Shown here: in pieces, positions 1,675-55,003 of the stretch
Position numbering within the stretch: the first letter of the stretch is position 1
How the letters are laid out: every line of letters starts with the position of its first letter
Assembly (NCBI GenBank): GCA_903864935.1
Contig: CAIPHT010000005.1
Span: 9,867 to 73,866 of the forward strand
Direction: 5' to 3'
DNA: 64,000 nucleotides
From: Candidatus Vogelbacteria bacterium
GTDB lineage: Bacteria > Patescibacteriota > Minisyncoccia > Phycocordibacterales > XYD1-FULL-46-19
The notes under the pieces: generated by a model
What the model was told of the DNA's origin: nothing
Seen by the model: the letters and a program-made list of their open reading frames with translations, nothing else
The model's database searches: none
Position numbers and translations under genes: made by a program

Positions 1675-1683
1675 CACAAAAGA

Positions 1684-1712
1684 AAAAACAGGATTTATTT
1701 CCTGTTTTTTCT
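1684..1712 (+). terminator. Rho-independent terminator hairpin (AACAGG-atttattt-CCTGTT + T-tract) after tRNA-Pro
   Basis: Stem-loop followed by TTTTTT directly after the tRNA. It sits at the centre of a ~30-nt-arm inverted repeat formed by the tRNA 3' half and its downstream antisense copy. Confidence 0.6.
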
Positions 1713-1767
1713 TTTGTGTCGCGAGATTCGAACTGAAGAGGGGGTCGGGGAGAGGGTAGGGTTTCTC

Positions 1768-3273: not shown

Positions 3274-3978
3274 GTGCCTCAGGAAGGTAAGCCATTTTTA
3301 AGCGATAATATTCATCTTGCTAATTTTGCCGAGGGTAAGGGCGATTTTGTTACCGTTAAGGAATTAAAGAATAAAATTGCTGATCCAAGTTTGGGTGGTG
3401 AAGGGAAGTTTGTTTTAAAAGAATATAATAAGGATCCTGTTAGCGACCTTTTTGCCCAGAAAAATCTTACGTTAGAAAAAATGGCCTCTTTATTAAAAAG
3501 ACGGCAAGAATTTACCCGGGCTTACTATAAGGAACTTCCTGAGTTGGTCGTGGAAAGCCAGTTTTTGATTGCTGAAGGAGAAAATGGTCAACCGACAATC
3601 TATGAATTTCAGGAGAAATTAAATAATTTCCACGAAACTAGTTCCGAGGGGATTGATAATATTGTAAAAAGTTTGGATCACGAGCAAAAAGAGGTTTTGA
3701 TAAAAGAGCTTAGGTATTTTGTAGAGAGGACAAACGATTTTATTGAACAAAAGAATTTGCCTGAAGGTTTTGAAGAATACGAATCTTTTTTTCCTGATCT
3801 CGGTGAACAAAATTTAGTTGTCACCGCTGATGGTCATTTAAGGGTTATTGATACTAACATGTACCATAATCTTTGGGAACAGGACGGTACTTTTGAATCA
3901 AGCGAGCAACTTCTTTTTGGTTTGCGCATGATGACAAGGGAATTGGTTTTATCTATCAAAAAATCCCAAAAAGACTAG
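3274..3978 (+). CDS. hypothetical protein (GTG start), co-directional with the helicase
   Basis: Long ORF 20 nt after the helicase stop. No motif recognised; a ...TADGHLRVIDTN... segment is vaguely kinase-like. Confidence 0.45.
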   Translation: MPQEGKPFLSDNIHLANFAEGKGDFVTVKELKNKIADPSLGGEGKFVLKEYNKDPVSDLFAQKNLTLEKMASLLKRRQEFTRAYYKELPELVVESQFLIAEGENGQPTIYEFQEKLNNFHETSSEGIDNIVKSLDHEQKEVLIKELRYFVERTNDFIEQKNLPEGFEEYESFFPDLGEQNLVVTADGHLRVIDTNMYHNLWEQDGTFESSEQLLFGLRMMTRELVLSIKKSQKD

Positions 3979-4008
3979 ACGTTTTTGTCCCCGGTCTTTT
4001 TTTATGTC

Positions 4009-4036
4009 TTGACATTGTGCGTACATTGTATATACT
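4009..4036 (+). promoter_or_regulatory. promoter TTGACA-N16-TATACT for the dinJ-yafQ module, overlapping a GTACA..TATAC palindrome (likely operator)
   Basis: Consensus -35 and -10 hexamers 10 nt upstream of the antitoxin ATG. Confidence 0.5.
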
Positions 4037-4045
4037 TAAGACATT

Positions 4046-4294
4046 ATGACGACTCTAAATATAAGGATTGAGGAGAAAGCTAAAGCTGATGCCAATAAGA
4101 CCCTGGCTCGTCTTGGCCTTGATATGTCGAGTGCCGTGAAGCTTTTTCTCTATCAAGTGGTAAAGGAGGATGGCTTACCTTTCTTGCCGACCAACAATCT
4201 CTCTACTATCAAAGCGCGTTTTGATGCCCAGGTGTCTGAGGCAAAGAAAAGCCGTGGGTTTAAAACTGCTAAACAAGCTCTTAAGGGACTATAG
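4046..4294 (+). CDS. dinJ: type II antitoxin, DinJ/RelB family
   Basis: MTTLNIRIEEKAKADANKTLARLGLDMSSAVKLFLYQVV is a ribbon-helix-helix antitoxin signature. It is immediately followed by a YafQ-like ORF. Confidence 0.75.
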   Translation: MTTLNIRIEEKAKADANKTLARLGLDMSSAVKLFLYQVVKEDGLPFLPTNNLSTIKARFDAQVSEAKKSRGFKTAKQALKGL

Positions 4295-4635: not shown

Positions 4636-4825
4636 CGGAGTGTAGTGTAACGGTAACATCCACGACGCGCCCCCACACCTTTTTAACGGGGCATAGTGTA
4701 ACGGTAACATCCACGATTCGGGTTCGTGGGACTCTGGGTTCGAGTCCCAGTGCCCCGACAGGAACGTAAAAAAGGTGTGGGGGTGAAGGTTCGTGGGACT
4801 CAGGGTTCGAATCCCTGCACTCCGA
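4636..4825 (+). tRNA. tRNA-Pro-like gene whose anticodon loop holds a 125-nt insertion (4666-4790) containing a complete tRNA-Pro(CGG)
   Basis: 5' part CGGAGTG-TA-GTGTAACGGTAACATC-CCACGA (4636-4665) and 3' part TCGTGG-GACT-CAGGGTTCGAATCCCTG-CACTCCG-A (4791-4825). Acceptor is perfectly complementary and the D-arm is identical to the nested tRNA. The insert has 10-bp perfect inverted repeats CCCCCACACC (4670-4679) and GGTGTGGGGG (4774-4783). Uncertain whether functional, spliced or a pseudo-tRNA. Confidence 0.5.
4687..4758 (+). tRNA. tRNA-Pro(CGG), nested inside the outer tRNA-Pro-like gene
   Basis: Acceptor CGGGGCA/TGCCCCG, anticodon stem CCACGA/TCGTGG, loop TTCGGGT (anticodon CGG), T-arm CTGGG-TTCGAGT-CCCAG, discriminator A. 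Confidence 0.8.
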
Positions 4826-4840
4826 CAAAGCGAAGCATTT

Positions 4841-5016
4841 GGCGGAGTGAGCGAGCCAACTGCTTGGCTTGCGTCTGGGATTCGAACAGCGGAGTGATAT
4901 TTTTTCAGCAGAAAAAATTAGCGAGCTGGTGCCTAGACAAAGTTTTGCGACGGCAAAACTTTAGTCGAAGGAGAATCCCTGCACCGTAGTAGTGATATTT
5001 CCTGCACTCCGACAAA
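4841..5016 (+). repeat. tRNA-flank mimic element copy B (~175 nt), immediately 3' of the outer tRNA-Pro-like gene
   Basis: Homologous to the minus-strand segment 9201-9354. It starts with a GGCGGAGTG acceptor-like 5' end and contains three hairpins: GCGAGCCAA-ctgc-TTGGCTTGC; TTTTTTC-agca-GAAAAAA; AAAGTTTTG-cgacggc-CAAAACTTT. It ends with GAATCCCTGCAC...TCCGACAAA, a direct repeat of the tRNA 3' end plus 4 nt of flank. Confidence 0.5.
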
Positions 5017-6386: not shown

Positions 6387-7259
6387 ATGTTAACGCAAAT
6401 CCAAAAAGAATTAAGAAAAGTGGCCGACAAAGACAAGGCAAAAATTTTGGCGCGGTTTTTCAAAACTGGGAAAGGCGAGTATGGTGAGGGTGATAAATTC
6501 TTAGGGGTGGTGGTGCCGGAGCAAAGACGGATTGCAAAAGAATATTTGCGAGACGAGAACGTTGTGAGAAGTCGTTTTTCAAGTGAGCCCGAAATGCGAC
6601 TTCGCACAATGTTCGCTGACCTTCAAAATCTTTTGCGAAGCGAGTATCACGAAGACAGGTTAACCGCCCTTTTGGTTTTAGTGGAGCTGTATCGACTTAC
6701 TCAAAAAAATGACCCTACTTCGCCGAGGCTTCGCAGGGTTAATTCGCGCAAGATTTTTTTGTTTTACATAAAAAATCTTGCGCGAACTTGCCCCGTGAGA
6801 GCGAAGCGATTTTACGGGGTTAACAATTGGGACTTAGTAGATTTAAGTGCCCCTAATATTGTCGGCGATTATCTGTTTACCCTGAGTGAAGTCGAAGGGT
6901 TGAATAATTTTTCTAAAATTCAAATAAAAACATTTTTGCTTAAATTAGCTAAGTCAAAAAATCTTTGGTCGCGTCGGGTGGCGGTGCTTGCCACCTTCCC
7001 CTTTATCAAAAATAAAAAGTTCGAAGAAATTTTAGAGTTGACCAAGTTCTTACTTTTCGAACAAAAAGAAAATCATGACCTAATGCACAAGGCTCTTGGT
7101 TGGGCGCTCCGCGAAGTGGGGAAGAGGGAGTTGGGAGTTTTGAGGAACTTCCTTGATCACTATGCGGGAGTCTTGCCTCGGACCACTCTTCGTTACTCAA
7201 TTGAGAGATTGCCTCAAAAGGAGAGGCTCGAGTATCTAGCTAGGCCCAAAATCGCTTGA
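6387..7259 (+). CDS. DNA alkylation repair protein (AlkD-like HEAT-repeat glycosylase family) carrying in-frame palindromic inserts
   Basis: N-terminus MLTQIQKELRKVADKDKAKILARFFKTGKGEYGEGDKFLGVVVPEQRRIAKEY and later ...NNWDLVD..., ...LWSRRVAVLA... are typical of the DNA_alkylation repair family. Extra segments VRSRFSSEPEMRLRT and DPTSPRLRRVNSRK.../...ARTCPVRAKRFYGV coincide with DNA palindromes. Confidence 0.7.
   Translation: MLTQIQKELRKVADKDKAKILARFFKTGKGEYGEGDKFLGVVVPEQRRIAKEYLRDENVVRSRFSSEPEMRLRTMFADLQNLLRSEYHEDRLTALLVLVELYRLTQKNDPTSPRLRRVNSRKIFLFYIKNLARTCPVRAKRFYGVNNWDLVDLSAPNIVGDYLFTLSEVEGLNNFSKIQIKTFLLKLAKSKNLWSRRVAVLATFPFIKNKKFEEILELTKFLLFEQKENHDLMHKALGWALREVGKRELGVLRNFLDHYAGVLPRTTLRYSIERLPQKERLEYLARPKIA
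6564..6607. repeat. 44-nt palindromic element GTGAGAAGTCGTTTTTCAAGTGAGCCCGAAATGCGACTTCGCAC inserted in-frame in the AlkD-like CDS
   Basis: Nucleotide-identical to 45454-45497 inside comEC. Imperfect hairpin (11-bp outer stem plus inner TTTC/GAAA). Encodes VRSRFSSEPEMRLRT in both hosts. Confidence 0.8.
6716..6820. repeat. composite nested palindrome inside the AlkD-like CDS (17-bp perfect stem TTCGCGCAAGATTTTTT/AAAAAATCTTGCGCGAA plus outer CTTCGC..GCGAAG arms)
   Basis: Read directly from the sequence. It stays in-frame (...NDPTSPRLRRVNSRKIFLFYIKNLARTCPVRAKRFYGV...). Confidence 0.6.
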
Positions 7260-8245: not shown

Positions 8246-8464
8246 ATGTCTTACGGCTTCCTCATTATTTTTCTCGCCTGGCTCTGGCAATGGTATAAGT
8301 TTGGTCAAGGTCATCGCTCGATGGATCCATGGTTTCTTCGCCTCTTTGCGCTTGGGATGTTGGTCTTAGTTCTCGACACTTTCAGAATTTCTAATTGGCT
8401 CACTTGGGCCAATGTCGCCACTCTTGTCATCACTATTTTCTTCATCTGGAAATTCAGACGATAA
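8246..8464 (+). CDS. small 2-TM membrane protein, hypothetical
   Basis: 72 aa ORF 4 nt after the previous stop, with two hydrophobic segments. Confidence 0.35.
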   Translation: MSYGFLIIFLAWLWQWYKFGQGHRSMDPWFLRLFALGMLVLVLDTFRISNWLTWANVATLVITIFFIWKFRR

Positions 8465-8483
8465 AATCCTACCAATCTTTATC

Positions 8484-9104
8484 ATGAAGACTTTCGCTTT
8501 TATTGACGCTTCTAATCTTTTTTATGGTGGTGAAAAAAGTTTAGGTTGGAAGATCGATTATCAAAAATTACTCGCTTATATTAAAGAAAAATACGAAGCG
8601 GAAAAGGTCTTTTATTTTGGAGGAGTGGAAATTCACGATTTTCTCTATGACTATCAAAAAGAAGAAACCGTCAATTTATCGGAGTTAGAGAAACATTTGT
8701 TGTTGATAATCAAAAATGAAGAGAATAATTTTAACGAAGCTCGGTTAATTCTTTTTGGTCACCATCTTCAGCGTGTTCGTTTTTACAAAAAGCTAGAATC
8801 TTTTGGTTACAAAATGTTTCTCAAGCCGGTTAAACTTTTTGAGCAGGAAGATGAATCAACTAAAAGAAAAGCTGATTGCGATGTTGATATGACAGTAAAA
8901 ATTATCAGAGAAAAAGATAATTTTGACCGAGCTCTTATTTTGTCTGGTGATGGAGATTTTTTGCCTACCCTAAAATATCTGAGAGAATTAGAAAAAGAAG
9001 TTGTTATCTTGGCACGTGGGCCTAGGACAGCACGAGAAATTCGCCAATTTGCTGGCAGTAATTTTAGAGACTTCGAGTATCTTCGAGAGCTATTAAAAAG
9101 GTAA
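8484..9104 (+). CDS. NYN-domain (LabA/PIN-like) protein
   Basis: MKTFAFIDASNLFYG ... ILSGDGDFLPTLKYLRE is a NYN/LabA-like nuclease-fold signature. The ATG at 8484 is preferred over the longer upstream extension. Confidence 0.65.
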   Translation: MKTFAFIDASNLFYGGEKSLGWKIDYQKLLAYIKEKYEAEKVFYFGGVEIHDFLYDYQKEETVNLSELEKHLLLIIKNEENNFNEARLILFGHHLQRVRFYKKLESFGYKMFLKPVKLFEQEDESTKRKADCDVDMTVKIIREKDNFDRALILSGDGDFLPTLKYLRELEKEVVILARGPRTAREIRQFAGSNFRDFEYLRELLKR

Positions 9105-9200
9105 TAGAAACACAAACGGCACCCATTTAGGATGCCGTTCAAGTTTAGTACCTTAAGTTTACTTGATTGACGAAAATTGTCAATCGTTGTTTGCAATTTT

Positions 9201-9354
9201 TGCGAGGGATGGGAGAAAACCGTCGCCCGCGACTCAAGTCTCGCCGTCGCTCAACTTGGTCTGGGCACCAGCTCGCTAGTTTTTGTTGGTACAAAAACAT
9301 CGCTCCGCTGTTCGACTCTCCACGCAAGCCAAGCAGTTGGCTTGCTCATCCCGC
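9201..9354 (-). repeat. tRNA-flank mimic element copy A, immediately 3' of tRNA-Gly(TCC)
   Basis: Read on the minus strand: GCGGGAT (the tRNA-Gly acceptor 5' strand), then hairpin GCAAGCCAA-ctgc-TTGGCTTGC, then GTGGAGAGTCGAAC (antisense to the tRNA-Gly T-arm), then AGCGGAGCGAT, then hairpin GTTTTTGT-acca-ACAAAAAC, then TAGCGAGCTGGTGCCCAGAC, then a hairpin with loop CGACGGC, ending CTCCCATCCCTCGCA (a near-copy of the tRNA-Gly 3' end). Core is homologous to 4841-4975. Confidence 0.5.
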
Positions 9355-9356
9355 AA

Positions 9357-9380
9357 AAGAGCCTCCTTGTGGAGGCTCTT
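9357..9380. terminator. bidirectional terminator hairpin AGAGCCTCC-ttgt-GGAGGCTCT flanked by A/T tracts, between tRNA-Gly and element A
   Basis: Perfect 9-bp stem with T-runs on both strands. Confidence 0.55.
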
Positions 9381-9386
9381 TTTCTG

Positions 9387-9457
9387 TGCGGGATGGGAGA
9401 GTCGAACTCCCGACCTCAGTTTGGAAAACTGATATTTTACCGCTAAACTAATCCCGC
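9387..9457 (-). tRNA. tRNA-Gly(TCC)
   Basis: Minus strand: GCGGGAT-TA-GTTTAGCGGTAAAAT-A-TCAGT-TTTCCAA-ACTGA-GGTC-GGGAG-TTCGACT-CTCCC-ATCCCGC-A; anticodon TCC. Confidence 0.8.
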
Positions 9458-9544
9458 CTTCGCTGAAGCTTCGGCGGGCAGGCCCGCTCAGCTAGCTTTG
9501 ACTTCAATACTTTAGCAGGAAAATTGAGTATTTTCAATATAAAA

Positions 9545-9585
9545 AATACGCCGAGGACATTTCTGTCCTCGGCGCTTAATCGTTC
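9545..9585 (-). terminator. intrinsic terminator (GCCGAGGACA-tttct-GTCCTCGGCG + T-tract on the minus strand) after the REC gene
   Basis: Strong stem with an A-tract on plus and T-tract on minus, directly 3' of the 9597 stop. Confidence 0.6.
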
Positions 9586-9596
9586 TCGGCGTGTGG

Positions 9597-10133
9597 CTAA
9601 CGGTGACGGAAACGTTGCTCGTATTTGCTCAGGTCATGGGAGCAAGAGAAACTCTTTCCTGTGTCTGGGTCCTGCCAGAAGTCTTCTGCAAATGCAAGTC
9701 CCCAGTCCTTGCCTGGCTTAGACCCCTCTTCTCTGTTCCAGCGAGGAAGAGCTTGTTTGAAAAAGACTCTCTTCCCACCAACAAGGAATCTCCCCATGCT
9801 GACAATCATCTCGCAAATCGGGTCGGAATGTTGTGTCGAAGTGAAGAGACCCACTCCTTTAACGCAAGGCTTGCTCAGGGCCTCCAACATCACGAGCAGG
9901 CCACTGGGCACAAGCTTCGGCGGGCCGGTAGTGACAGACTTGTTGATGAAGGTTTTGTCCGGGGGCATGTAGAGGTCGGTCATCACCCAGTCGAAGTCTT
10001 GTTTGTCCAGCAGGTCCACCGCTTCTTTGTAGCCCGTCGCGGAGACAATGTCGTAGGCTTCGGGGGAGATTGTCTCCCTGGTAGACTCGATATTCTCTGG
10101 GCTGTCGTCAACAATCAGAATGCGCTCTCTCAT
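9597..10133 (-). CDS. response-regulator receiver (REC)-like domain protein with an uncharacterised C-terminal domain
   Basis: MRERILIVDDSPEN...YDIVSATGYKEAVDLL...FDWVMTDLYMP shows a CheY-like beta1-alpha1-beta2-alpha2-beta3 pattern with the DD pair and a phospho-acceptor Asp. The ATG at 10133 is chosen because it abuts the upstream gene's stop. The C-terminal ~100 aa are unknown. No histidine kinase nearby. Confidence 0.45.
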   Translation of the reverse strand: MRERILIVDDSPENIESTRETISPEAYDIVSATGYKEAVDLLDKQDFDWVMTDLYMPPDKTFINKSVTTGPPKLVPSGLLVMLEALSKPCVKGVGLFTSTQHSDPICEMIVSMGRFLVGGKRVFFKQALPRWNREEGSKPGKDWGLAFAEDFWQDPDTGKSFSCSHDLSKYEQRFRHR

Positions 10134-10134
10134 C

Positions 10135-10770
10135 TTAGGTCTCCTTTTCAAAGTTCTGGTTTTTGTTATCTTCTTCTGAGACGATGAAGGCGAATCCGTT
10201 CGCTCGACTAATCTTCCTTTTTTCGCTCTCAAAAAAGATCGTGTCTAGACTGGGCCGGATCAGGCGGCTGCCGAATCTTCCTTCAATCAGCTTGCCGGGG
10301 AAAAGGGTGAGAATATACTGACCATTTTCGCTACTGAAGTTGGGCAGAGGGTCATGCATAACGACAACGCAATTTGCCCTCATGTAAGACAAGTCTTCGT
10401 CGGAGAGACTTTTGCGGAGAAGGCAGGCAACTTCTGGTGTGGCCTCTCTCCAACCTCGCTCCTTCGCTTCTTGGCGGATATTTTCCACTGTGCACCATTC
10501 AGCCTTGTCGATGTTCCAGCCATCAAGAATGGCGATTTCGTACTTCTTTCCTCTCGTTGGTTTGAAGTCCTCTGATTCGATAATTCTCTCGGCGCAGCCC
10601 TGGATTATGGGGGACTTGTCATCTTCCGAATAAAAGTTACGGAAGGATTCTTCGCACCATTCTTTTCCGGTTTTCCCGTCAGACGTTACGGAGAGGTAGT
10701 AAACCCCATCTTTCCAGGTAAAATGTTCATGGGTCGAGGTCCTTCCTGCCCACGGCTGAGAAATAATCAT
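10135..10770 (-). CDS. hypothetical protein (211 aa), GC-richer, co-transcribed with the REC-like gene
   Basis: Clean ORF with a 1-nt gap to the downstream gene. No recognisable motif. Confidence 0.5.
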   Translation of the reverse strand: MIISQPWAGRTSTHEHFTWKDGVYYLSVTSDGKTGKEWCEESFRNFYSEDDKSPIIQGCAERIIESEDFKPTRGKKYEIAILDGWNIDKAEWCTVENIRQEAKERGWREATPEVACLLRKSLSDEDLSYMRANCVVVMHDPLPNFSSENGQYILTLFPGKLIEGRFGSRLIRPSLDTIFFESEKRKISRANGFAFIVSEEDNKNQNFEKET

Positions 10771-35132: not shown

Positions 35133-35175
35133 CATATATGGTAACATTTTTTACAATTGTAAAAAATGTTACCAA
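35133..35175. promoter_or_regulatory. 36-bp perfect palindrome TGGTAACATTTTTTACAATTGTAAAAAATGTTACCA (copy 1, downstream of the PaaX-like gene)
   Basis: Perfect dyad symmetry. A second copy at 35737-35774 differs by a single centre base. Confidence 0.6.
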
Positions 35176-35194
35176 TTTGGAAGGTTAAAGAAAA

Positions 35195-35713: not shown

Positions 35714-35736
35714 TATTATTATCTATTTTAACAAAT

Positions 35737-35774
35737 GGTAACATTTTTTACAATCGTAAAAAATGTTACCAGAA
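35737..35774. promoter_or_regulatory. 36-bp palindrome copy 2 in the divergent intergenic region between the PaaX-like gene and tpiA (putative operator)
   Basis: GGTAACATTTTTTACAATCGTAAAAAATGTTACC, 60 nt upstream of the tpiA ATG. Confidence 0.55.
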
Positions 35775-39236: not shown

Positions 39237-39807
39237 TCTTTAAAATAATTTTTTTAGAATTACAAAGCCGCCAGAGGTCCTAAGACATGGCGGCAAACGG
39301 GGCCCCTCGAGGGGGCAAAAGCAGTGAGCAACGAAATCCAGACGCATGAACTTCGTTGCCTAATCTAAATAAAAATTGAAAGTTAGGGCACTTTCGTGGC
39401 GTCGTCCGTGGGCCTACTACTCCGAGCGATTCGGAGTGCAACTACGCGAGCTCTCGCAGTTGCTACGGCCTTTCTTTATTTATAGAACAGAGAAGATTGC
39501 TGGGGTGGTCTCATCGCTAACTCGCAATTGGGCGAGCGAGGGGTCAGCAAACTTCTTAGAGGAGCATCTAAGTTAAGTATATCATAACCACAAAATTTGT
39601 CAAGGATAAAAATAGAAACCGCCAGGTCTCGCAATGCGGTGGGACCCCAAGGGGGTGGTCGCGTTACGAAAAACTGGCGGCGGTAGCCGGTGGCATCCGG
39701 CCACGCGGGGAGCATTCAGATAGAGCTTGGGCCCCAATGCCCTTCTTTGTGGCATCCCTCTGCCCTTTAGTGTGTCATAACTTCAAAATTCGTCAAGTAT
39801 AAAAACA

Positions 39808-39843
39808 CCGCCCAGGTTTCGGACTCACTTGAGGCCTGGGCGG
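39808..39843. repeat. GC-rich hairpin of the CCGCCCAGG...CCTGGGCGG family (3' of the HIT gene)
   Basis: CCGCCCAGGTTTCGGACTCACTTGAGGCCTGGGCGG. Related copies at 48441-48476, 54947-54986 and 59543-59580. Confidence 0.6.
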
Positions 39844-39859
39844 GGAGAGGAGAAATGGC

Positions 39860-45093: not shown

Positions 45094-46641
45094 ATGAGCA
45101 TGGCTAATTTGAGAAAAAATTTAGCCCTGCTCATATTTGGTTTTTTGAGCGGTGTCACCTTGGGTGGTCTTATCTCTTGGGCTTTGCCGTGGGTGGGGCT
45201 ATTTTTGGTTCTCGCTCTGGCTTTCTCGGCCCTGTTTCTCAAACTTAAGCGCCAAAAGCTTTTTTTAGCTCTCGCCATAATTTTTGTTGGAGTGATTCTC
45301 GGCCTGATTAGATTTAACTTTAGCCAAAAAACTGACCAAGCTTTGCCCGATTGCTCATCTTCGTCTAGGCCTTGCCTAGCCATGGTTGTCGCTGACCCAG
45401 ACCGGCGAGATGCTTCAACGAGGTTGGTGATTGAGCTTATGGAGTCCGAGTTTGTGAGAAGTCGTTTTTCAAGTGAGCCCGAAATGCGACTTCGCACGAA
45501 CTCGAGAGTTCTAGCTATTATTGACAACTTCACCGACTACTCTTACGGCGACAAAGTGGAGCTCGTTGGTAAAGTAGAAAAGCCTCAGAACTTTTTGACT
45601 GAACAAAACACCGTCTTCGATTATCAAAATTATTTATTAGTCCGCGGCATAGAACAAACAGTTTATCAGCCCAAACTTAAAATCATTTCTCGGGGTAACG
45701 GTTCTACTGTTAAGGCTGGTCTCTATTCTTTAAAAAATAATTTCTTAGGCAATCTTCGTCGTACTTTGCCCGAGCCGGCTGCCTCGTTAGCTGGCGGTCT
45801 CATCTTGGGGGACAAGGGCGGCTTAGGTAAGAAGACTGAAGATGAGTTTAGGCAAGCCGGGGTCTCGCACATTATTGTCCTCTCTGGCTATAACATTACG
45901 ATTGTGGCCGAGAGTGTGCTCTATTTCTTCGCTTGGCTCACACCGGCTTTCTCCTGGCTCCTTTCTATTGGTTCAATCTTTCTTTTTGTCCTGATGACCG
46001 GTGGCGAAGCTGCGGCCGTGCGCTCGGCGGTGATGGGCGCCATCGCGCTCATAGCAAGGCGTTATGGTCGCACCTATGATGCGGGAGTGGCCTTAATTGT
46101 TGCCGGCTTCTTGATGATAGTTTGGAATCCAAGGCTTCTCGCCTTCGACCTCGGCTTTCAACTCTCCTTCCTCGCCACATTGGGTTTGATATATTTGTCA
46201 CCCGTGGTGGAGAAGCTTTTGGATATCGGTTCGGGATTTCTGCGAAGTCGCATCTGGCTACGCGAGAAACGACTTCTCAAAAATCCCGAGCTTTTGAGAA
46301 GTTGGACTTCAAGAGAGCCCGAAGTCCAACTTCGCGGAAGCGGGGAGAAAAAGTTTAACAAGGATGTTTGGTCCGGTCTCAAAGAGCTCATCTGCACCAC
46401 CACCGGCGCCCAACTCGCCGTCTACCCTTGGCTCCTCTATAAAATGGGCAACGCTTCGCTCGTTGGTTTCATCTCCAACATCTTCATTCTCCCACCTATT
46501 CCCATTGCCATGTTCTTAAGTTTCTTAACGGGTATTACTGGTTTTATTTCCTCCTTCCTATCTCTTCTCATCAGTTATCCTACTTATTTCCTCCTCGCTT
46601 ATATCCTCAAAATGGCTCATATCTTTGCGAGTTTGTTATAA
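45094..46641 (+). CDS. comEC: ComEC/Rec2 competence protein, membrane channel part (DUF4131 + Competence domain), with in-frame palindromic inserts
   Basis: Multi-TM with IIVLSGYNITIVAES (competence domain signature). Contains the 44-nt palindrome at 45454-45497 and a related one at 46297-46335. Confidence 0.8.
   Translation: MSMANLRKNLALLIFGFLSGVTLGGLISWALPWVGLFLVLALAFSALFLKLKRQKLFLALAIIFVGVILGLIRFNFSQKTDQALPDCSSSSRPCLAMVVADPDRRDASTRLVIELMESEFVRSRFSSEPEMRLRTNSRVLAIIDNFTDYSYGDKVELVGKVEKPQNFLTEQNTVFDYQNYLLVRGIEQTVYQPKLKIISRGNGSTVKAGLYSLKNNFLGNLRRTLPEPAASLAGGLILGDKGGLGKKTEDEFRQAGVSHIIVLSGYNITIVAESVLYFFAWLTPAFSWLLSIGSIFLFVLMTGGEAAAVRSAVMGAIALIARRYGRTYDAGVALIVAGFLMIVWNPRLLAFDLGFQLSFLATLGLIYLSPVVEKLLDIGSGFLRSRIWLREKRLLKNPELLRSWTSREPEVQLRGSGEKKFNKDVWSGLKELICTTTGAQLAVYPWLLYKMGNASLVGFISNIFILPPIPIAMFLSFLTGITGFISSFLSLLISYPTYFLLAYILKMAHIFASLL
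45454..45497. repeat. 44-nt palindromic element, identical to 6564-6607, in-frame inside comEC
   Basis: Exact 44/44 nt identity. Encodes VRSRFSSEPEMRLRT in the same frame as in the AlkD-like gene. Flanks form extra complementary arms (CGAGTT / AACTCG). Confidence 0.8.
46297..46335. repeat. diverged member of the same palindromic element family inside comEC (GAGAAGTTGGACTTCAAGAGAGCCCGAAGTCCAACTTCGC)
   Basis: Shares the GAGAAGT...TTCAAG.GAGCCCGAA...ACTTCGC framework, with a compensatory inner stem TGGACTTC/GAAGTCCA. Confidence 0.6.
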
Positions 46642-48425: not shown

Positions 48426-48440
48426 AAATTCACCTAAAAA

Positions 48441-48476
48441 CCCGCCAGGCCTCGGGCTCACTTGAGGCCTGGCGGG
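48441..48476. repeat. GC-rich hairpin of the CCGCCAGG...CCTGGCGG family (terminator for the S2P gene)
   Basis: CCCGCCAGGCCTCGGGCTCACTTGAGGCCTGGCGGG. Confidence 0.6.
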
Positions 48477-48499
48477 GGAGAAAGGGGGAGTTTTTGCCC

Positions 48500-54930: not shown

Positions 54931-54946
54931 TGGCTCTACATTCAGA

Positions 54947-54986
54947 CCCCGCCCAGGTCTCGGGCGACCTTGAGGCCTGGGCGGGG
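54947..54986. repeat. GC-rich hairpin CCCCGCCCAGGTCTCGGGCGACCTTGAGGCCTGGGCGGGG between divergent promoters
   Basis: Same family as 39808, 48441 and 59543. Confidence 0.6.
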
Positions 54987-55003
54987 GAAAGGAGGGGTAA
55001 ATA

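Follow-up and report, generated by a model that had tools for sequence, protein, structure and literature searches.

A 64,000-nucleotide (nt) stretch of a Candidatus Vogelbacteria genome (assembly GCA_903864935.1, contig CAIPHT010000005.1, positions 9,867-73,866 of the forward strand), referred to below as the window and used for all position numbers, carries a non-coding folded element, copy A, directly 3' of a tRNA-Gly(TCC) gene. On the minus strand, the tRNA gene (9457-9387; ARAGORN and Rfam tRNA, 68.8 bits, start called at 9386/7) is followed by a spacer hairpin, the element, and a distal near-copy of the tRNA end. The tRNA terminus reads ...CTCCCATCCCGCA, with the discriminator A at 9387 (...GGGAGTTCGACTCTCCCATCCCGCA in another extract of the same minus-strand reading). 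The 3' third of this gene, made up of the T-loop, the T-stem 3' strand, the acceptor 3' strand, and the discriminator, is the sequence that copy A both complements and copies. The spacer hairpin P (9385-9355, minus strand) is composed of an A-run (9385-9379), the stem strands GAGCCTCC (9378-9371) and GGAGGCTC (9366-9359) around an ACAA loop (9370-9367), and TTTT (9358-9355). The element proper (9354-9217), lying between this hairpin and the distal repeat, starts with GCGGGAT (9354-9348), the complement of the tRNA-Gly acceptor 3' strand ATCCCGC. At the acceptor/T-stem junction this 5' arm is interrupted by the 9-base-pair (bp) hairpin H1 (9345-9324; GCAAGCCAA, loop CTGC, TTGGCTTGC) and resumes as GGAGAGTCGAAC (9321-9310), complementary to tRNA-Gly GTTCGACTCTCC (T-loop and T-stem 3' strand). 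A core of ~90 nt (9309-9217) comes next and comprises two arms. Arm 1 (9310-9269; helices 61-64/106-109 and 68-69/102-103 of the covariance model described below) exhibits a CAGC/GCUG stem, a GGA/GA internal loop, a GC/GC stem, and then the variable hairpin H2. Arm 2, or H3 (9265-9226), delineated by covariation, has a CCC/GGG base, GACC/GAGUC, a variable stem, and an apical GA-GC-GACG-GC-GAG motif. The core end and a filler, CGACGGTTT (9225-9217; homology with the related locus L018 stops at 9222), lead to the 16-nt distal direct repeat TCTCCCATCCCTCGCA (9216-9201), recognised from its sequence, the fold, the repeat statistics of the family, and covarying closing pairs. This repeat reproduces the T-stem 3' strand, the acceptor 3' strand, and the discriminator with a 2-nt insertion (9216-9201 versus 9399-9387), and in the predicted fold it pairs with the 5' arms and closes copy A. 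Given that GCGGGAT and GGAGAGTCGAAC complement the tRNA-Gly, copy A is bounded by two copies of the tRNA 3' third, an inverted one at its start, which H1 interrupts, and a direct one at its end.

The only open reading frames (ORFs) over the element are short, overlapping, mechanical ones, and the segment fits a non-coding structure model. In this respect the initial annotation of this DNA, which described a segment of ~170 nt encoding no protein, holds; its part order and coordinates for 9201-9386 are accurate to 1-2 nt, the duplication of the tRNA-Gly 3' end that it read in the distal segment agrees with the sequence and recurs across the family, and the second copy that it reported exists. 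This copy B (4843-5014, plus strand) stands 3' of a disrupted "outer" tRNA-Pro, scores 144.5 bits with the covariance model, and follows the same plan, with the 5' arm CGGAGTG, H1, CTGGGATTCGAAC, the core, ATCCCTGCAC-CG, and a second repeat, CCTGCACTCCGACA; it is 80% identical to copy A over the common part. Compared with shuffled sequences, the folds have z-scores of -4.7 (copy A) and -6.0 (copy B). ARAGORN analysis of the window reports three tRNAs only, with no tRNA or transfer-messenger RNA (tmRNA) on the element, and Rfam returns no tRNA or tmRNA match for 9201-9354 even at E up to 10.

Species-representative genomes were scanned with a pattern made of two blocks common to copies A and B, GAACAGCGGAG and AGCGAGCTGG, separated by 20-50 nt, which yielded 52 loci. 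Thirty-six of these, with a spacing of 44-53 nt, belong to Taylorbacteria, Nomurabacteria, Paceibacterota, Saccharibacteria, and unnamed metagenome-assembled genomes (MAGs) of Patescibacteria; one bin among the 36 carries the label Gammaproteobacteria and is probably mislabelled. Pattern loci with other spacings sit in ordinary coding-looking DNA of unrelated phyla and were discarded as chance matches. A covariance model built from 34 copies was then run on the window and on the loci fetched from 28 MAGs, designated by L numbers. In the window and the 28 Patescibacteria MAGs it reports 52 matches, of which 45 have E < 1e-10; the 52 include diverged copies that the pattern missed. Within these searches, the element family is large and restricted to Patescibacteria, with a unit length of about 150-190 nt. 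Rfam 15 has no family matching the element, either at gathering thresholds or at E up to 10, and its spurious sub-threshold matches hit the spacer hairpin only (Phe_leader, 24 bits for a threshold of 55). BLAST analysis against phage and plasmid collections and pattern scans of viral contigs return no element match, and no published description of the family turned up in a literature search.

The composition of the units varies. Other cores flanked by tRNA-matched arms and H1 occur at L051 (2414-2556), in the 3' flank of L017, and at L034 (986-1111), amounting to at least two further core types. Since these units have like arms and H1 but differing cores, the family amounts to a superfamily in which cores can be exchanged. 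Between the core and the T-stem 3' strand, L025, L029, L016, and L050 have a fourth, optional hairpin, A(A/T)GYGTAMTCRCG, which shows the compensatory changes ATG/CAT, GTG/CAC, and GCG/CGC. A small recurring insert, GGGTGARGTCGGGATAGGRACCYGAC...CAAGACC, is present in or beside the elements of three genomes, at the element 3' end in L026, inside H1 in L046, and in the L025 flank.

The conserved structure is a three-way-junction core that covaries, is strand-specific, and extends from Saccharibacteria to Paceibacterota. Covariation was measured on the covariance-model alignment of 44 distinct copies, in which 98.3% of the cells form standard pairs and 25 of the 27 pairs have changed on both sides. 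None of the 500 shuffles reaches any of the observed measures, and sliding the 3' partners by 1-3 columns lowers pairing to 30-40%. All nine pairs of H1 have changed on both sides (98.4% of cells paired), as have all 12 pairs of core arm 2 (93-99% of cells paired), which family-wide reads CCY/RGG and GACC/GAGUC, followed by a variable stem and, at the apex, a small motif whose loop is GACG. In core arm 1, the CAGC/GCUG stem with its GGA/GA internal loop is supported, with a compensatory CACC/GGUG in L061. H2 folds in each of the 38 copies tested despite unrelated sequences and is out of register in alignments; MAFFT failed to register both H2 and the outer closing stems. The pairs that close the core also covary (columns 55/168, for instance, are AU in 12 copies, UA in 12, CG in 10, and GC in 5). 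For the closing helix, a crude "best duplex" statistic was dropped, its controls being almost equal, and exact-match statistics and in-register pair counts were used instead. In 36 of 37 copies, the better fold is that of the tRNA-sense strand and not of the reverse complement, and G-U pairs are also more numerous on the tRNA-sense strand (91 versus 66 overall, and 15 versus 0 in H1). Fold energies and G-U bias together indicate that selection acts on a single strand with the polarity of the tRNA, be it RNA or single-stranded DNA. The opposite strand was considered as the functional one, as it bears a textbook GTTCGAAT T-loop, and was rejected on the same G-U counts and energies. By inspection, the junction sequences do not fit hammerhead, hepatitis delta virus-like, group II domain V, signal recognition particle, or tmRNA motifs. 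Compensatory changes above controls and strand asymmetry are generic marks of structured RNA, and the element displays both. Beyond what the initial annotation described, the segment is not plain, cargo-less DNA but a strongly covarying, strand-specific structure, and it contains an additional, inverted copy of the tRNA end.

These properties call to mind a resident functional RNA, i.e., an old, structured 3' external transcribed spacer (ETS) co-transcribed and inherited with its tRNA. Its closing helix would mimic the acceptor/T minihelix, RNase P and RNase Z (perhaps also the CCA-adding enzyme) would excise it, and its core would bind a cellular partner; the arms would match because they are former copies, both partners evolving slowly, and absences would be deletions between the direct repeats. 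We regard this explanation, the main rival of the insertion model proposed below, as possible rather than probable. The very strong covariation, the strand bias, and the junction and loop bases that are invariant from Saccharibacteria to Paceibacterota speak for it, and further points on both sides come from the arms, the trailers, and the spacer hairpins.

Forty of the 52 covariance-model matches have a same-strand tRNA within 330 nt upstream. At least 15 tRNA species are concerned, the hosts including Thr, Leu, Ser, Arg, Met, Gly, Ile, Ala, Asp, Lys, Phe, Tyr, Gln, His, Val, and Pro tRNAs. The remaining 12 matches lie at contig ends or N-gaps or are weak, with the exceptions of L016 and L029, which have only ~10 nt of a tRNA end upstream. 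The common plan is a tRNA-complementary strand split by H1, followed by the three-way-junction core and a direct copy of the 3' end of the unit's own tRNA. Between the element 3' end and the cognate tRNA, the longest exact direct repeat measures 13 nt in the median and 21 nt at most, against a mean of 5.4 nt and a maximum of 9 for non-cognate tRNAs; the longest exact inverted match of the 5' arms has a cognate median of 11 nt, against a non-cognate mean of 5.9 nt. Even an unusual T-loop, like the TGCAAGT of one L034 tRNA-Met, is tracked by its complement, and where the CCA is gene-encoded (L004, L027, L035, L047), the direct repeat takes it in together with a few trailer bases. By Watson-Crick rules, the 5' arm complements the tRNA 3' strand; it is not a copy of the tRNA 5' strand, and it usually extends into the complement of the discriminator and trailer. 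At tRNA G:U pairs it has A where the tRNA has G (tRNA-Ala of L032, tRNA-Asp of L034). In nine loci (L002, L008, L015, L025, L031, L039, L042, L048, and L049), the tRNA 3' end, trailer, and spacer hairpin make up one arm and their complement the other, so that the two form one almost perfect inverted repeat, each arm 25-35 nt long. An origin from a mature tRNA, in the manner of a primer-binding site, was rejected: the 5' arms match the gene trailer, not the added CCA. One acceptor arm is absent in the subfamily L004, L009, and L035 and in the single copies L018, L002, and L032. In L025, the closing T-stem has diverged from the tRNA and still pairs with its own partner, which implies that identity to the tRNA is not strictly required.

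Several readings can be weighed against this matching. That the locus is plain intergenic DNA with a terminator, resembling a tRNA end by chance, has nothing in its favour except that the single repeat of copy A is short, and it is refuted by the fold z-scores, the 45 strong homologues, the covariation, and the cognate-specific repeats; we give it practically no weight. A decayed tandem tRNA duplicate, in which the D and anticodon arms have shrunk to H1 and the T-loop has gained an insertion, would explain why the order acceptor 5', hairpin, T-stem 5' ... T-stem 3', acceptor 3', discriminator is that of a tRNA. We consider it extremely unlikely, given that copies at unrelated tRNAs have homologous H1 hairpins and cores, that the 5' arm complements the tRNA 3' strand (A, not G, at G:U pairs) and runs on into the discriminator and trailer complement, and that neither ARAGORN nor Rfam makes a tRNA or tmRNA call, even at E = 10. 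As for the inherited ETS, it accords well with the closing stem of L025, which stays paired despite its drift from the tRNA, with orthologous copies that follow changes in their tRNA (L015 versus L039), and with the copying of discriminator and CCA. It does not account for the origin of units with matching arms at 15 or more unrelated tRNAs, nor does it sit well with the missing acceptor part of the closing helix in L004, L009, and L035 and in L018, L002, and L032, or with a combined helix of 16-18 bp, which exceeds the 12-bp minihelix. Twelve base pairs is the length that RNase P measures.

Scanned for an exact match to the 3' half of the tRNA-Gly, metagenomes yield 14 loci, 13 of them independent (L055 and L062 are the same in sequence). 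The element is carried by L058, which is the same contig as L018, and by L061 only; 10 of the 13 independent loci are devoid of it, other DNA directly following the tRNA, and L065 stops 3 nt past the tRNA-Gly and is uninformative on presence. The comparison of related tRNA-Gly loci that the initial annotation had put forward thus bears out a variably present segment. It does not reveal the precise excision footprint that was envisaged: at L053, which is syntenic with the window, has an identical tRNA-Gly, and keeps the NYN-gene flank visibly conserved through the aligned stretch, the element is missing and 37 unrelated nt replace the hairpin and element of the window (~200 nt). The trailers of these loci are informative. 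Nine element-less relatives have CC or CCA directly after the tRNA-Gly, while CA(A/G) and an A-run stand there in the element-bearing loci. In L061, CC is found after the distal repeat, and the flank CCCACACC is the trailer seen in L055; likewise L001, L024, and L041 have CC after the distal repeat although their own tRNA genes lack it. A CC trailer at the distal repeat and a new A-rich trailer at the tRNA follow attL/attR logic, as expected if the distal end is the original one and the proximal end was brought in. L061 and L065, from one sample, have identical upstream flanks and tRNA-Gly and then diverge; as L065 ends 3 nt after the tRNA, the pair is no more than a hint of coexisting alleles.

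Units are also found stacked. Two identical units stand behind tRNA-Arg in L004 and three behind tRNA-Gln in L051, the first of these with a different core, and the L034 array runs tRNA-Met, unit, tRNA-Met, unit, tRNA-Asp, unit, its first unit having a third core type. The core of copy A is 97% identical to that of L018 (tRNA-Gly), 89.6% to that of L044 (tRNA-Lys, in another genome), and 80% to that of copy B, while the arms of copy A are unrelated to those of L044 and copy B. An RNA simply inherited with its tRNA leaves three of these facts without explanation, namely the stack of differing cores behind one tRNA in L051, the CC trailer of element-less relatives being kept by the distal repeat and not by the tRNA, and the majority of relatives that do without the element behind the same tRNA-Gly. 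In L018, the tRNA-Gly/element module has the opposite orientation relative to the conserved flanking genes, and the points at which its homology with the window breaks are precisely the tRNA 5' end and the core end. A single inversion between copies A and B was rejected as an explanation of the difference between the window and L018, as the intervening genes retain their orientation. Two side observations concern the same tRNA-Gly. In L055 and L062, a different insert, resembling a miniature inverted-repeat transposable element (MITE), occupies the same tRNA end ~200 nt after the tRNA-Gly, with 20-bp terminal inverted repeats (CCACACCAATAATGGCATT...) around ~110 AT-rich nt, followed by the partial tRNA-end repeat CCCGCAC. 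On the 5' side, the leader GAGCGGGCCTGCCCGCCGAAGCTTCAGCGAAG (9495-9458, minus strand), directly upstream of the tRNA-Gly, is also present in L056, L057, L059, L064, and L066 and absent from L053 and L018, and may represent another small optional module.

The genes around copy A comprise an NYN-domain gene (8412-9104), convergent with the tRNA-Gly and copy A side and without an identical protein on record in an exact-protein look-up, a truncated response-regulator-like gene, and an ORF without any Pfam match. The second, REC-like ORF (9597-10232; Pfam Response_reg, E = 6e-9) covers the first half of the receiver domain only and is overlapped by the third, of 211 amino acids (aa). This region has ~50% G+C, in line with the two GC-richer genes beyond the tRNA in the initial annotation. 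A RelB-antitoxin-like ORF is located at 4046-4294. Variable genes flank both tRNAs (3274-4294 and 8412-10770), neither region having a nucleotide match in L018, where the tRNA modules are inverted relative to the window; the suspicion that this tRNA neighbourhood is prone to recombination is borne out by surroundings that are rearranged between relatives. Clustering of all ORFs within 3.5 kb of 40 copies (38 loci) returns no recurrent family except the housekeeping genes of close relatives, and no integrase, transposase, or reverse transcriptase. The element is therefore not a classical tRNA-integrated island, and the attL/attR interpretation first given to copy A stands for the duplication, the presence/absence pattern, and the CC trailers, but fails for want of an integrase or recurrent gene across the 38 loci.

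Another possibility is that the units are scars of integrase-bearing islands or prophages, the direct repeat being attR and the 150 nt an attP arm left after deletion. The tRNA 3'-end direct repeats would fit, as would the variable, GC-richer genes beside the tRNAs (REC-like, 211-aa ORF, NYN, RelB-like ORF) and the different gene content of the window and L018. We nevertheless hold this origin to be very unlikely, with no integrase within 3.5 kb in 38 loci and no match in the phage, plasmid, or viral collections, with units in L034 between adjacent tRNAs just 100-200 nt apart, and with RNA-type compensatory changes and a G-U strand bias that are unexpected for protein-binding att arms.

A promoter-like site (TTGAAA, 17 nt, TAAAGT, with TG; 9537-9509, minus strand; consensus scan only) precedes the tRNA-Gly, and L053 has a comparable TTGAAAATACTCAATTTT box ahead of this tRNA-Gly. 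Hairpin 9385-9355, which had been annotated as a bidirectional terminator, is not called by our terminator scan (at least 5 T within 8 bases after a GC-rich stem), only 4 T following the stem, and none is called between the tRNA-Pro and copy B. The first terminator-like site that the scan reports after copy A on its strand (9141-9113, minus strand) coincides with the 3' end of the convergent NYN gene. Judged from these sites, a transcript likely starting at 9509-9537 would run through the tRNA-Gly and copy A. The internal spacer hairpins of the L034 array have no U-runs; together with the lack of a terminator call for copies A and B, this makes co-transcription with the tRNA plausible at these loci. 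An excised trailer RNA is favoured by the absence of a terminator call between tRNA and element in the window and by the L034 units lying within a tRNA array behind hairpins devoid of U-runs. It is disfavoured by many other family members, in which the spacer hairpins have long U-runs and, by eye, resemble strong terminators.

Two further peculiarities involve tRNA-Pro genes. After tRNA-Pro(TGG), positions 1717-1733 (plus strand) are probably, as judged by eye, the remnant of a third copy that has lost its core: behind a palindromic hairpin stand TGTCG and CGAGATTCGAAC, which complement CGACA and GTTCGAATCTCG in the 3' end and T-loop of this tRNA-Pro. The covariance model reports no match at this remnant. 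The surrounding stretch (1676-1740, plus strand) consists of a long palindromic terminator, TGTCG plus CGAGATTCGAAC, and a G-rich stub, and ends in a perfect TTGACT-17-TATAAT promoter for a helicase gene; as a whole it is probably a decayed third copy of the element. Positions 4636-4827 (plus strand) hold a tRNA within a tRNA. The outer tRNA-Pro(CGG), CGGAGTG...CACTCCGA, is broken in its anticodon loop and is whole in the relative L018; nt 32-35 (TTCG) are exchanged for a 122-nt insert composed of a perfect 15-bp inverted repeat (4670-4684 and 4769-4783) around a complete second tRNA-Pro(CGG) (4687-4759). The nested fold is a cloverleaf within a cloverleaf (z = -5.0), and the insert has the look of a tiny cassette, breaking a tRNA gene and at the same time supplying its replacement. 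It was sought in viral contigs and in the fetched loci and not found. Elsewhere in the window, a 46-nt repeat occurs twice with 100% identity, 39 kb apart (6562-6607 and 45452-45497), a GC-rich hairpin repeat family, CCGCCCAGG...CTCACTTGAGGCCTGGGCGG, has members at 39803-39848, 48436-48481, and 54944-54989, and two near-identical perfect palindromes of 37-39 nt (ATGGTAACATTTTTTACAATTGTAAAAAATGTTACCA; 35138-35177 and 35733-35771), 597 nt apart, flank a short segment.

Starting from the observed anatomy, covariation, strand bias, tRNA-specific matching, presence/absence, tandem arrays, and lack of a linked gene, we propose that the family consists of miniature, non-autonomous, protein-free elements that insert at tRNA 3' ends, are under selection as a folded single strand, and are probably co-transcribed with the tRNA; in our judgement, this account has about an even chance of being right. 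It combines the insertion-like behaviour of the DNA (target-end duplication, presence/absence, stacking, rearranged surroundings) with the conserved fold. We infer that units insert and are lost as DNA, and that insertion is driven by a recombinase or other machinery encoded elsewhere, the active folded form being either RNA or single-stranded DNA. A unit would enter by recombination within the last 16-20 nt of the tRNA. The incoming unit would supply a replacement tRNA 3' end, a new A-rich trailer, and the hairpin, along with the H1-split strand complementary to the tRNA 3' end and the three-way-junction core. The tRNA would remain intact and its original 3' end would be displaced to the far side as the distal direct repeat. 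In the folded tRNA-sense strand, the complementary arm could take either of the two tRNA 3'-end copies as its partner; the resulting helix would have the sequence of the acceptor/T minihelix, i.e., be a copy of the target duplex. The element, without a promoter of its own, would most likely be read through from the tRNA promoter. If the unit were permuted or free, one long helix would result from the proximal tRNA end, the trailer, the hairpin, and the complementary arm, capped by the hairpin loop at one end and closed by the core at the other. Such a model accounts for the seamless palindromes, for an inverted repeat that is better preserved than the distal repeat, for the CC trailers, and for the stacks. 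Insertion is supported by the element-less majority (10 of 13 loci), the CC trailers, the tandem units, and a core lineage that crosses tRNAs with differing arms.

Several facts weigh against this proposal. Within the loci searched, no recombinase, transposase, or reverse transcriptase is linked to the element; a circular or free form has not been seen; and the lone syntenic "empty" site, L053, is a 37-nt replacement and not a clean footprint. The model also leaves unexplained how the acceptor arm, the T arm, and the distal repeat are all re-matched at a new tRNA. The core is near-identical from Saccharibacteria to Paceibacterota, which suits a cellular function equally well or better than selfish spread, part of this cross-class conservation being ascertainment because the search pattern required 21 conserved bases. 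The closing T-stem of L025 has diverged from the tRNA while keeping its own pairing, and the 97% identity of copy A and L018 could be due to purifying selection on an RNA. In a bolder version of the insertion model, which we view as rather unlikely, the element would be a viroid-sized (about 170-190 nt), protein-free, mobile parasite of tRNA genes, using host machinery only. Its single strand, once folded, would reconstitute the target duplex (the 3' third of the tRNA), and its arms would be re-templated from each new tRNA at insertion. If true, re-templated arms would amount to nucleic-acid-guided, or target-templated, insertion, a class of mobile element not described before.

The genomes of the candidate phyla radiation (Patescibacteria) are tiny and have little spare DNA, yet many of their tRNA genes bear a conserved 150-nt folded appendage that is without annotation in any database. 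If mobile, the element would be gene-free and among the smallest insertion elements known, its three arms matched to each new tRNA would pose a sharp mechanistic question, and it would explain why tRNA neighbourhoods are rearrangement hot spots in these genomes. If a cellular RNA, it would form a new and widespread RNA class, linked to the maturation of tRNAs, in a major, little-understood branch of bacteria. In both cases, the covariance model lets annotators label such regions and flags tRNA loci that are prone to confusion in assembly or tRNA prediction.

The closest known parallels are of five kinds. 3'ETS-leuZ of E. coli is a functional RNA derived from the trailer of a tRNA transcript, a short sponge of a single locus. 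If the RNA of the element is functional, both would be RNAs from a tRNA trailer; the element differs by its tRNA mimicry and multi-copy core, neither of which is, to our knowledge, a property of 3'ETS-leuZ. Plant mitochondrial t-elements and the MALAT1 mascRNA present an acceptor/T-arm-like helix within a longer transcript, recognisable by tRNA end-processing enzymes. The element appears to share this helix mimicry, as far as its modelled closing helix indicates, and differs in copying the neighbouring tRNA and in forming a multi-copy family with an additional core. We know of no t-element or mascRNA in bacteria, of none that copies a neighbouring tRNA, and of no multi-copy family of them with a common extra core. 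MITEs and REPINs (repetitive extragenic palindromes arranged as hairpins) are likewise short, non-coding, multi-copy, intergenic, hairpin-rich, and non-autonomous. A MITE has constant terminal inverted repeats and a short target-site duplication, whereas the arms of the element differ in every copy, each being equal to the local tRNA, its "duplication" is 13-21 nt of a specific gene end, and its interior covaries like an RNA.

The substrates of integrons (attC) and of elements that exploit Xer recombination, such as the CTX phage, are small, structure-defined, strand-specific recombination sites whose recombinase is encoded elsewhere. Substrates of the attC type can be without ORFs and form arrays at one site, and the att site of the CTX phage is a folded single strand in which a hairpin imitates the duplex target. 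The target-like folded helix of the element resembles these folded att sites, by analogy only. The GTTRRRY/RYYYAAC core of the attC palindrome (R''/L''-L'/R') is absent by inspection, no intI or dif context is known, and no recombinase is linked at the loci, the rest of the genomes not having been searched; in place of that core, the element has GTTCGA/TCGAAC, derived from the T-loop, and each copy has a different tRNA target. Lastly, islands and prophages integrated into tRNA genes by a tyrosine integrase share with the element the insertion at the tRNA 3' end, the tRNA kept intact by the incoming end, the original end remaining as a distal direct repeat, the serial stacking at one tRNA, and the variable presence among relatives. 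Copy A has the direct repeat expected of attL/attR, and no integrase lies in or beside the insert. The element further differs from such islands in measuring only 150-190 nt, in its want of any gene, in its inverted copy of the target and covarying strand-specific fold, and in the spread of one core lineage over many tRNAs with matched arms. Among known systems, it can thus be described as a tRNA-end insertion reduced to a protein-free structured unit with copy-specific arms.

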